Assembly: GCA_010015585.1 (NCBI GenBank)
Contig: ML975151.1
Reading direction: 5' to 3' (one strand)
Source of the DNA: Eremomyces bilateralis CBS 781.70
Taxonomy: Eukaryota
DNA: 40,692 nucleotides
Below the pieces are notes generated by a model that saw nothing but the letters and a program-made list of their open reading frames with translations, did not search any database and was not told the origin of the DNA. Numbering within the stretch: position 1 is the stretch's first letter; every line of letters starts with the position of its first letter. Below, piece after piece: positions 8,583-11,410 of this stretch. Made by a program: the position numbers and the translations under genes.

Positions 8583-9349
8583 GATGGCGACACGAAACTC
8601 GTCAACTTCGTCAGGCTCACTTTAACATAAACGGACGATGGTGAGGTGTCAGCTTGGAATATCACACTCCCACACACCAGGAATGGAATTGGGACTCGGG
8701 AATTTTCGAGGTCGTGTCTAGTGGATGCCGCACACTACGCAGTACGTGGCCCAATCCGAAGAATTTCCAGTGCAGTAATAATCTGCAACAATTAAGGTGA
8801 TTTCAGCCAGGAACAAATGGGGTTGGAGAGGACAGGGAAGCTCCAGGGAAGCCAATGCCACTAAGACTTGTCCAATGTCAATTGATAGGCGCGAGGTTTG
8901 GTCCAGAAGGAGATATAGGTGCCTTATTGCCGTGCAGCCTGAAATCTAGAGCCCGAAAGAATGCCAGGGGGAATTTACTAGGAGGTCCAGAAATTCTCCA
9001 TATGCATGTCTGTCCAAGTGTCCAACACGGCTGATGCGATTCGTGTGTAGTAATACTCTGCTTCTTCCTCTCGCTCACCGATATTACAGTATTCCCATCT
9101 TCCACGTTCAACGCCTCGCTTCACTTTCTGAGCTTCTGCTCCTTCACTTCCTTTCACTCCATCAAGGCTCACTTTTGGGTCAGTCGCTCATTCGACTCTC
9201 GTTTATCTCTCGCCCGTGCCTCGACTTCGCGCCCGTCACGTTTTCAGACCAAGCTTTGTCTGAAATACATTTCTCGACACGAATCCTCAACACGCCCATA
9301 AACTTCTTAAAACGCTTCCCCTCGTGACTCGGAATCCATCCCCCCAGCC

Positions 9350-9880
9350 ATGGCTCGCATCTCCATCCCCCTCGACGCCCTGACGTCCCGCTTCAACCTC
9401 TCTCAACGCTTCGAAGGCGTCCGCTCCCAGTCGATAGCCTCACGATTCGCCAACCTGAAGCCGATCTCCGAATTCTTCGATTTCAAGCGCCTGTCGAAGC
9501 CTGAGAACTTCGGGGAGGCCCAGAGCCGCGTCAACTACAACCTGGGATACTTCTCCAGCAACTATGCCCTCATCTTCGTCATGCTGGCCATCTACGCCCT
9601 CCTCAGCAACCCGGCCCTGTTGTTTGTCATCTTCCTAGTGGTCGGAGGCATGTGGGGGATTGGCAAGTTGGGTGGTGCCGATTTGGATTTGGGATTCGTG
9701 CGAGCGACGACTTCACAACTATACACCACGCTCCTAGTCATCGGCATCCCGCTGACCATCTACGCATCCCCTCACCTCACCATCCTCTGGTTGATCGGGG
9801 CAAGCGGCGCTACCATCCTGGGGCACGCCGCATTTATGGACAAGCCGATCGAGCAAGCTTTTTCCGAGGAGGCGGTCTAG
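9350..9880 (+). CDS. YIP3: PRA1-family Rab acceptor / Rab-GDI displacement factor Yip3 (short isoform, 176 aa)
   Basis: KPISEFFDFKRLSKP..FGEAQSRVNYNLGYFSSNY, hydrophobic hairpins, WLIGASGATILGHAAFMDKPIE..FSEEAV are typical PRA1/Yip3 features. Confidence 0.93.
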   Translation: MARISIPLDALTSRFNLSQRFEGVRSQSIASRFANLKPISEFFDFKRLSKPENFGEAQSRVNYNLGYFSSNYALIFVMLAIYALLSNPALLFVIFLVVGGMWGIGKLGGADLDLGFVRATTSQLYTTLLVIGIPLTIYASPHLTILWLIGASGATILGHAAFMDKPIEQAFSEEAV

Positions 9881-9929
9881 GTGGTCGGCCGCGAACTCCA
9901 CATTCGATGCCCCCTTGGGGAAGACCACC
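9859..9929 (+). promoter_or_regulatory. Programmed -1 ribosomal frameshift signal: slippery T-TTT-TCC plus predicted H-type pseudoknot
   Basis: In-frame GCT TTT TCC at 9857-9865; 6-nt spacer; stem 1 GCGGTC(9872-9877)/GGCCGC(9887-9892); stem 2 GGTGGTC(9880-9886)/GACCACC(9923-9929). Confidence 0.75.
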
Positions 9930-11229
9930 GGGGCGACGGCGGCCAGAGCTCGATATGTACCCGACCAATGCCTGGCCGCCTGCTGCCTTCTCCCGGTTCC
10001 AGGAGCTGGGCAGTGACGACGAACAGGGTGTGGTGTTGAACCCCAAACGCAAGAGCAAGTTTGTTTCGGATGAGTTATTTTTCAATGATTTTGGGTCGCG
10101 GTTCCCGGTGGATATTAGAAGTCAGGATGAGGATCTGGCGTACGGTGATTATCATGGTTATTCGTTGGAGCCGGAGGAGTACGATGATTTGGTGGGCGGA
10201 ATTAGAGCGGACGATGAGGTGATGGTTCATCGCATCATGGAAAAGAGTTCGAGGGCCAAAGCAAAAGGGAGGGCCAATATCAGTCTGTCGACCGAGGAAA
10301 TCGATGCTCTCGAGCGCTGGAATCGGCCACGACGAAGAAAATCCTCGTCTCCTGAGCTACCATCCAACAGCAAGCGGAGCCTCAATGGAAGCCCCGGCAA
10401 TAGCGTTCGTTCACGGAAGAAATCTCAAAAATCCACTTCCTCGCAACAGAGCTCCAAGTCCAAACGATCCAAATCTAGCCGCCACGAAGACGACAATCTC
10501 ATCGACCCTCCGTACCCCTCCTCCGCCCGGCCACCCTCTTACCACATCCCCGTCGCTGGCGTCCAACCACCCATAAGTTACTACAACCCTAGCTCCTCCA
10601 ACCGCCGCTCCGCATCGTCTCCCACCCGACCTCGCTCCCGCTCCGACTCCCGGTCCATCTCCTCCACCCCCTCCCGCTCACGCGACACTCCACCTTCCAA
10701 CACCCGCTACCCTCCCCCCTCGGACTACCTCCGCCCCTCCTCCTCCCACTCCCCGATCCCCGACCACCCTGACGACCACTACGGTCGTTCCCGCGCCTCC
10801 TCCGCCGTCATGCCTGGCTACCCGCACGGCGTCCCTCTTGACCCCTTCGCCTACCAGATCGCCTCGTCGCCTGCAGCGCCACCGGGCGGTCCGCCCCCTG
10901 GCTACCCTCCCGGCCGGCGCATCGCGTCCGGGCCGCCCGACGTCGCGTACTCGAATGTGATGCGCCGCGTCCCGGTCCCGAACGCGACTGCGGCCGCGGC
11001 GAGGGGGCCGGTGAGCGCGTCGGATTCGGCGGGAGGGAGTCGGGCGGGGTGGAGGGAGAGGAGGAGCGAGTTGGGAAGGGAGATGGGGGAGGAGAGTGAG
11101 GAGACGAGTAGTGAGGACGACGATGAGGATCAGGGGGTGCAGGTGGATGTGCAGCGGATGAATGGTAGTGGGAGTTATGAGGCGCGGACAACAAAGGGGA
11201 ACAATGGATGGCAGCGGAGAAGACGTTGA
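9862..11229 (+). CDS. YIP3: -1 frame C-terminal extension of Yip3 (Ser/Pro/Arg-rich, likely disordered); long isoform about 626 aa
   Basis: Intronless ORF open from 9652 to 11229 in the -1 frame relative to YIP3; no room for its own promoter (first ATG after the YIP3 stop is at 9907). Contains ..RAKAKGRANISLSTEEIDALER and DPFAYQ blocks. Confidence 0.8.
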   Translation, partial: FRGGGLGGRPRTPHSMPPWGRPPGRRRPELDMYPTNAWPPAAFSRFQELGSDDEQGVVLNPKRKSKFVSDELFFNDFGSRFPVDIRSQDEDLAYGDYHGYSLEPEEYDDLVGGIRADDEVMVHRIMEKSSRAKAKGRANISLSTEEIDALERWNRPRRRKSSSPELPSNSKRSLNGSPGNSVRSRKKSQKSTSSQQSSKSKRSKSSRHEDDNLIDPPYPSSARPPSYHIPVAGVQPPISYYNPSSSNRRSASSPTRPRSRSDSRSISSTPSRSRDTPPSNTRYPPPSDYLRPSSSHSPIPDHPDDHYGRSRASSAVMPGYPHGVPLDPFAYQIASSPAAPPGGPPPGYPPGRRIASGPPDVAYSNVMRRVPVPNATAAAARGPVSASDSAGGSRAGWRERRSELGREMGEESEETSSEDDDEDQGVQVDVQRMNGSGSYEARTTKGNNGWQRRRR

Positions 11230-11410
11230 TTTGGAGGTCTGATTGTCGATTCTTTTGGGTTTGACGGAAGCCTTTTTTGGTTTCTGCGCTGGATACGGCA
11301 TGCCATTTTGGGACATCTGGGCAAAAAAGTAATACAAGCCTTTCCATTCGTACATCATCTAACCGTGTTATATGCGTGAATCGCTTCAGTTGCCCTACCA
11401 ATTCAACCCA

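Follow-up and report, generated by a model that had tools for sequence, protein, structure and literature searches.

Comparative evidence for a distal second stem in the predicted pseudoknot at the probable YIP3 -1 frameshift site of Eremomyces bilateralis

The stretch of DNA analyzed here (the window) comprises 40,692 nucleotides (nt) of contig ML975151.1 of the fungus Eremomyces bilateralis CBS 781.70 (GenBank assembly GCA_010015585.1) and includes a YIP3 gene, a second, long open reading frame (ORF) in the -1 frame and, at the junction of the two, a predicted RNA pseudoknot of the kind that stimulates ribosomal frameshifting. All features described lie on the plus strand. The 5' ORF (9350..9880, stop TAG at 9878-9880) encodes a YIP3/PRA1-family product of 176 amino acids (aa) that matches Pfam PF03208 with an E-value of 1.4e-39 over profile positions 2-142 of 143, which identifies it as a complete PRA1/YIP3 protein. 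The 3' ORF (9862..11229) extends from the first -1 codon, UUC at 9862-9864, to a stop at 11227-11229, and the -1 frame is free of stops from before 9700 through 11229. Within this frame an ATG at 9907, only 26 nt past the YIP3 stop, begins an ORF of 440 aa, the product of which has exclusively fungal homologues (Tothia, Verruconis, Exophiala and several lichen fungi) with 27-36% identity. The ATG itself is not conserved, as would be expected if frameshifting is the route to the 3' ORF: the same column reads GTG, TTG, TCG, GCG or ACG in many relatives. Conservation is found for the -1 frame peptide upstream of this position (GGLGGRPR.P), and fused public gene models display a conserved -1 peptide, FFRGGGLGGRPR..P.WGRP(P/S). 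A survey of annotations covered window positions 9907-11229 and proteins P0003-P0093. Most database homologues of the 3' ORF are annotated with the start MPPWGRP, and public annotations err in two ways: the product is called a separate hypothetical protein from MPPWGRP, where an ATG happens to exist, or it is joined to PRA1 by way of invented introns, with the end of YIP3 skipped (e.g. P0018, P0024 and P0058). A single 2203-nt contig from public run X1 spans both ORFs (9087..11289) and is colinear with the genome with 0 differences and 0 gaps; this gives a weak hint of a colinear transcript across the junction, the RNA status of the run being a guess.

Frameshifting at this gene is known from Podospora anserina, in which YIP3 yields a short and a long protein via a -1 frameshift at U_UUU_UCC (Malagnac et al., 2013; PMC3777964), an account that is repeated in the review of Atkins et al. 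(2016; PMC5009743). According to the portions of the original report drawn on here, the site was neither spliced nor edited in 12 Podospora complementary DNAs (cDNAs), Pezizomycotina share this conserved arrangement, which takes a +1 form in Capnodiales and Ophiostomatales, +1 lineages with a retained pseudoknot were noted, and YIP3 frameshifting has been kept for more than 400 million years (PMC3777964). In yeast, a 59-nt Podospora insert gave a significant 1% frameshift versus 0.3% for the out-of-frame control, the Podospora pseudoknot failed to replace the pseudoknot of infectious bronchitis virus (IBV), and the native gene seemed to the authors to shift more efficiently (PMC3777964). The available portion of Espagne 2008 (PMC2441463) holds no detail on the site. 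The E. bilateralis locus shares with the Podospora gene, as far as described in these portions, the YIP3 5' ORF, a long 3' ORF confined to Pezizomycotina and set in the -1 frame, U_UUU_UCC near codon 170, a stem 1 that starts 2 nt downstream, a conserved 3-nt bulge ('highly conserved bulge of 3 nt in stem 1'), the UAG in the hairpin loop and a nearly identical nucleotide sequence over the first ~45 nt; it differs in the stem 2 arm, which is supported here ~57 nt past the shift site.

The zero-frame codons at the junction read GCU UUU UCC GAG GAG GCG GUC UAG, the first three being codons 170-172, and the shift site U_UUU_UCC occupies 9859..9865. Stem 1 consists of a lower part, in which GGAG (9868..9871) pairs with CUCC (9896..9899) in the minimum free energy (MFE) fold, and an upper part, in which GCGGUC (9872..9877) pairs with GGCCGC (9887..9892) through five G-C pairs and one U-G pair; a 3-nt bulge, GAA (9893..9895), separates the two 3' arms in the same fold. 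The first two bases of the stop codon (UA, 9878..9879) form loop 1, and the remainder of the stem 1 hairpin loop, GGUGGUC (9880..9886), forms the 5' arm of stem 2 and is complementary at every position to GACCACC (9923..9929), which encodes the residues R-P-P of the -1 frame peptide WGRPP. The structure lacks a loop 2, and loop 3 (9893-9922) measures 30 nt, or 23 nt when counted from lower stem 1. Loop 1 therefore bridges a stem 2 of 7 base pairs (bp) with 2 nt and loop 3 bridges stem 1 with 23-30 nt, lengths that suffice sterically for H-type pseudoknots. A candidate small hairpin within loop 3 (9910..9920; CCCC 9910-9913 with GGGG 9917-9920) has a predicted energy of -5.8 kcal/mol.

A preliminary description of this DNA had proposed an H-type pseudoknot with these two stems and loop lengths and with the YIP3 stop inside it, together with an optional extension of stem 1 by GGAG/CUCC. 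Every one of these pairings is present, the stop codon lies within the structure in the window and in all relatives, and the extension both forms in the MFE fold and is invariant among relatives. The 6-nt spacer that it called canonical is correct as the distance from the shift site to upper stem 1, and fair for the working state, but the structure as a whole already begins after 2 nt, with the invariant GGAG/CUCC. The proposed switch between hairpin and pseudoknot is not needed, since lower stem 1, upper stem 1 and stem 2 can all form together. The 5' arm of upper stem 1 and the 5' arm of stem 2 flank the stop as an imperfect direct repeat (GCGGUC UAG GUGGUC; 9872-9886), whose two hexamers do not differ in the Podospora insert; this hints that the knot might have originated by a small duplication.

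Considered in the window alone, the stem 2 pairing is only modestly unusual. Of 40592 window positions, 435 (1.07%) have a complement of at least 7 nt to a 9-nt loop within the 68 nt downstream, and the corresponding frequency among 20000 dinucleotide shuffles is 3.7%. Two-stem enumeration over 9866-9940, performed with a rough, home-made procedure and Dirks-Pierce-type penalties, returned the stem 1 and stem 2 of the preliminary description as the best bulge-free H-type knot, and when stem 1 is blocked, the remainder of 9857-9940 folds as stem 2 plus the small hairpin. An Rfam search assigned the element to no family, the sole match being bxd_2 at 14.2 bits and an E-value of 0.73, far below the gathering score. 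That the pairing exceeds chance is a result of comparative data and not of the window sequence alone.

For the comparison, a metagenome scan with a YIP3 alignment retrieved 64 loci, 56 of which contain the junction and both arms. Loci ending before the distal arm (L008, L039 and L041) or before the junction (L053, L054 and L060) were left out, as was L064, a spurious weak match. The comparison set of 57 sequences (the window and 56 loci) holds 38 distinct junctions, from which two alignments were derived: A4, with the 32 distinct rows of the main group, and A5, with the 36 distinct rows of all groups that have both arms in register. A YIP3 of 58% identity (L061:1300-1420) ends in TGA, ...GAAGAACAAGTTTGA, and shows no stem 1, no knot and no match to the downstream ORF; this locus is presumably from outside Pezizomycotina, in line with a group-specific element.

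At the DNA level, no locus exceeds 72-73% identity to the window in the 5' ORF, and end branches of the 5' ORF tree reach 0.65. Despite this divergence, 9857-9899 is nearly invariant, codon third positions included: the mean share of the top base is 0.97 over 9857-9886 versus 0.67-0.83 in five upstream coding blocks. A variable stretch of 9 nt follows position 9899, after which 9909-9929 is conserved again before the share falls to 0.47 from 9947, so that the conserved island stops just past the 3' arm of stem 2. GGGGAA at 9917-9922, directly 5' of this arm, is invariant in the main group, synonymous positions included, and is not kept in the group of L052. Loop adenines at the stem junction make minor-groove contacts in other frameshift pseudoknots, and the two adenines of GGGGAA would sit at the junction of stem 1 and stem 2. 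Within the shift site TTTTTC is invariant (32 of 32 rows) and the final base is C, A or T; the serine codon accordingly reads UCC, UCA or UCU (window 9863-9865; L048, L049, L050/51 and L008). A -1 slip thus leaves no conserved re-pairing for the A-site tRNA, and only the P-site re-pairing of UUU to UUU is conserved. The variable last base of the heptamer favors slippage of the P-site tRNA-Phe alone, and single-tRNA slippage was also suggested by the 2013 authors (PMC3777964).

Both stems are retained across relatives. All ten stem 1 pairs are 100% paired in the 32 rows of A4; the four pairs of GGAG/CUCC are invariant, and pair 3 of the upper part is GC in 29 rows and AU in 3 (L011, L013 and L033). 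Further compensation in upper stem 1 is seen in L042 (GCGGUA/UGCCGC) and, by eye, in the Podospora insert (GUGGUC/GGCCAC). For stem 2, 97.8% of the cells of A4 are paired and two pairs show two-sided changes; the whole structure has 3 pairs with such changes versus 0.9 +/- 0.8 in shuffles, a value reached by 9 of 500. On A5, 245 of 251 stem 2 cells (97.6%) are paired. Here pair 2 occurs as GC (20 rows), GU (11), AU (4) and CG (1) and is never unpaired, pair 3 as UA (31), CG (2) and UG (1) with two C.A mismatches, and pair 6 as UA (35) and UG (1), while pair 1 is lost in four rows, three with a UAA stop plus L056. Two-sided changes affect seven cells versus 2.0 +/- 1.1 after shuffling, and the covariation score is 0.156 versus 0.099; neither value is reached in any of 500 shuffles. 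Registers of stem 2 slid by 1-3 columns have just 18-74% of their cells paired, and at least 6 of the 7 stem 2 pairs are kept in all 57 sequences.

In the tree of 5' ORFs, stem 2 has changed on both sides along separate branches, in at least five events. The sisters L028 and L029 carry different pairs (A-U and C-G, respectively), and further changes occur in L052/L056 (A-U), in L033 of the GGGGAG group (C-G) and in L042 of the intron-bearing group (C-G). The placement of L062/L063 was not used, as their long branch is artefactual (5' ORF introns; the upstream 420 nt are not homologous). The covariation of the stem 2 arms, which the preliminary description had named as a check on its fold, is thus present, with two-sided changes at two of the seven pairs, and the comparison supports the retention of both predicted stems through compensatory changes, to which an H-type knot with these arms fits.

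Other pairings for the same bases were tried and rejected. A proxy for a proximal stem 2 short enough for the published 59-nt insert, in which the loop GGUGG pairs with five bases ending in GCC, is 78.6% paired; it never changes on both sides, and it is disrupted in L028 and L029, precisely where the loop differs. The downstream hairpin of the window's MFE fold (9909-9934) is unconserved, with 65.4% of cells paired. Judged by eye, pairing of the distal arm with the 5' arm of stem 1 (GGCGGUC) never beats pairing with the loop and is worse in L029, L033, L042 and L052. The small CCCC/GGGG hairpin in loop 3 is compatible with the knot and 98.4% paired on A4, with one-sided changes only, and is missing from the group of L052, L056 and L062; this hairpin is a suggestion.

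Two groups of relatives carry variant forms of the element. In L025 (1516-1565, 50 nt), L031 (740-791, 52 nt) and L042 (1726-1786, 61 nt) a putative intron lies within the element. In two of these loci it takes the form GTGAGT...YAG directly past the UAG, and in L042 the form GCAAGT...CAG inside a stem 1 arm. Its removal restores upper stem 1 and stem 2 in all three, with compensatory changes in L042, and places the 3' ORF in the +1 frame, whereas the unspliced frames are 0, -1 and -1. The shift site of these loci reads UCUUUCUC. The three loci may represent the Capnodiales-type +1 arrangement, in which case the knot exists there only in the spliced mRNA; for that arrangement the relevant passage of the 2013 paper describes 'only a small stem loop' (PMC3777964). 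A different reading frame for GGGAAGACC in the loci with introns, which would have distinguished RNA from peptide constraint, was considered and dropped, as the GRPP frame is identical. In the second group (L052:827-904, L056:615-692 and L062:1996-2073, the latter equal to L063:1858-1935), the hairpin loop is 2 nt longer, upper stem 1 has only 4 bp (GCGG/CCGC) and 3 nt separate stem 2 from stem 1. The GCCC..GGGG segment is absent and loop 3 is A-rich, and stem 2 still comprises 6-7 bp (GAUGGUC/GACCAUC). Of all parts of the element, stem 2 is the most persistent.

The IBV pseudoknot has a loop 1 of 2 nt, a stem 2 of 6 bp and a last loop of about 30 nt. Like this IBV 1a/1b signal, the predicted structure is of H-type, with a long stem 1 rich in G+C, a very short loop 1, 6-7 bp in stem 2 and a long last loop, and a likeness at the base of stem 1 was already drawn by the 2013 authors (PMC3777964). 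It departs from it in stem 1, which in IBV needs at least 11 continuous bp (PMC5009743) and here is split by the bulge into 4 and 6 bp, as well as in the spacer (6 nt in IBV versus 2 nt here, or 6 nt to the upper part) and in the non-canonical shift site. As in the three-stem knot of severe acute respiratory syndrome (SARS) coronavirus, part of the last loop may form its own stem-loop (candidate CCCC/GGGG, 9910-9920; PMC5009743), but this candidate third stem has only 4 bp and one-sided changes, and one group of relatives lacks it. Edr/PEG10 is likewise a cellular eukaryotic -1 frameshift signal with a 3-nt bulge in stem 1 (a comparison taken from PMC3777964); Edr combines a canonical heptamer with tandem slippage, whereas the last base of the heptamer varies here.

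Taken together, it is likely that 9859-9929 constitutes this fungus's copy of the Podospora YIP3 -1 signal, an H-type stimulator with a distal stem 2. The element is real and orthologous to the known signal, with a probably revised stem 2. The YIP3 frameshift system and a pseudoknot at the site were known already; the identity of stem 2 is what is new. If E. bilateralis frameshifts as Podospora does, most ribosomes would translate YIP3 and terminate at UAG 9878-9880, while a minority would slip back by one base on U_UUU_UCC and continue through the 3' ORF, producing the long form of YIP3. The stimulator would be composed of GGAG+GCGGUC paired with GGCCGC+CUCC around the 3-nt bulge, the UA of loop 1 and the GGUGGUC/GACCACC stem 2, and part of loop 3 may fold into the small CCCC/GGGG hairpin. 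With the shift site in the decoding center, the lower stem, only 2 nt away, would already be melted, and the ribosome would then meet upper stem 1 stacked on stem 2 at a distance of 6 nt, which is the usual one, as stimulatory structures begin 5-9 nt past the shift site (PMC5009743). Stem 2 would add to the stimulation.

Several observations weigh against this reading. Thermodynamic support is lacking in the window: the nested MFE of 9866-9934, which holds the extended stem 1 and cannot display stem 2, has a z-score of -0.55, the best knot reaches a z-score of -0.62 and is equaled by 68 of 300 shuffles, its crude energy of -12.6 lies far above the nested MFE of -31.6, and with the ribosome footprint and upper stem 1 both blocked other pairings win. 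Since only two of the seven stem 2 pairs vary (three pairs never do), the covariation rests on few sequences (7 cells), and the comparison sequences are all metagenome contigs. Among them, L028 and L029 have a C.A mismatch at pair 3, and the variants with a UAA stop (L018, L026/27 and L050/51) lose the terminal pair 1. In addition, the 3' arm of stem 2 codes for R-P-(P/S), a peptide motif conserved at the protein level across classes, so that conservation of the arm alone cannot separate RNA from protein constraint. Finally, the 59-nt insert lacked the distal arm and still gave 1% frameshifting in yeast, indicating that stem 2 is not essential for the basal level.

The composition of this insert defines what was tested previously. 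'Podo-1' ends in ...CGCCCCAT, where the closest loci, L049 and L050, read ...GCGCCCCAAT followed by GGGGAAGACCATC; it contains no complement of the loop heptamer, and both this insert and the 'Podospora pseudoknot' hybrids stop short of the site at which relatives have GGGGAAGACCAYC. Judging from the methods text, the distal arm therefore took no part in the cloned pseudoknot, and any stem 2 drawn and tested in 2013 must have been a different, proximal one. Whether the fold had been described before, a question left open in the preliminary description, thus receives a divided answer: the published portions report a pseudoknot at the YIP3 site (PMC3777964), but the published insert lacks the distal arm, and a literature search on YIP3 and Pezizomycotina frameshifting found no paper describing a distal stem 2. 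It is possible, and held here at somewhat less than even confidence, that the true stimulator is larger and IBV-like, perhaps with three stems. Its stem 2 would be closed by GACCAYC, located in the invariant WGRP(P/S) codons ~57 nt past the shift site, and omission of this arm from the published inserts would account for the 1% activity in yeast and for the failure to replace the IBV knot; the same knot would be retained in the +1 lineages, in which an intron interrupts the element, so that the knot would form there only once the RNA is spliced.

The closest competitor holds that stimulation comes only from the published and tested parts, the bulged hairpin of stem 1 and at most a short stem 2 contained in the 59 nt past the shift site, the complementarity of GACCACC being incidental and the arm being kept for the WGRP(P/S) peptide. 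The yeast value of 1% versus 0.3% out of frame (PMC3777964), the conserved peptide, knot energetics no better than those of shuffles and a frequency of about 1-4% for a 7-nt complement by chance all speak for it. It is nevertheless considered unlikely: a peptide constraint acting on one arm does not explain why changes in the loop are accompanied by matching changes in the arm on five or more branches, the proximal stem 2 proxy fares poorly as described above, and L052, L056 and L062 have lost GCCC..GGGG and shortened stem 1, yet keep a stem 2 of 6-7 bp.

More improbable is the proposal that the distal pairing is real and serves another purpose, such as tuning of termination at the UAG, which lies where loop 1 meets stem 2, a hairpin/knot switch or setting the direction of the shift in +1 lineages. 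The stop codon always falls within the structure, the same stems occur in L025, L031 and L042 with a +1 3' ORF after intron removal, and +1 lineages keeping a pseudoknot appear in the portions of the 2013 report drawn on (PMC3777964). No data call for a switch, however, as the three stem segments can coexist, and the position of the structure relative to the shift site is that expected of a frameshift stimulator (PMC5009743). That the 3' ORF is an independent gene starting at ATG 9907, with the structure irrelevant to its expression, is hardly credible: the 440-aa ORF and the many homologues annotated from MPPWGRP agree with it, but the start codon is replaced in many relatives, the -1 peptide upstream of it is conserved, only 26 nt separate stop and ATG, and the fusion protein was demonstrated in Podospora (PMC3777964).

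Cellular eukaryotic -1 frameshifts are few, and that of YIP3 is among the oldest. Its published signal seemed odd: the spacer is 2 nt, the reporter reached a weak 1%, and activity did not carry over to the IBV shift site. If the distal stem 2 is true, the element tested so far was truncated, and the missing arm would offer a simple reason for the low activity in yeast, the failure at the IBV shift site and the impression of higher efficiency in the native gene; host differences would explain these three observations equally well. For annotation, the element is relevant because many public fungal genomes miscall the 3' ORF as a separate protein or bridge the junction by invented introns. The revision of stem 2 and the persistence of the knot in +1 lineages and across an intron would be of interest to the recoding field, as a refinement of a known system that opens no new category.

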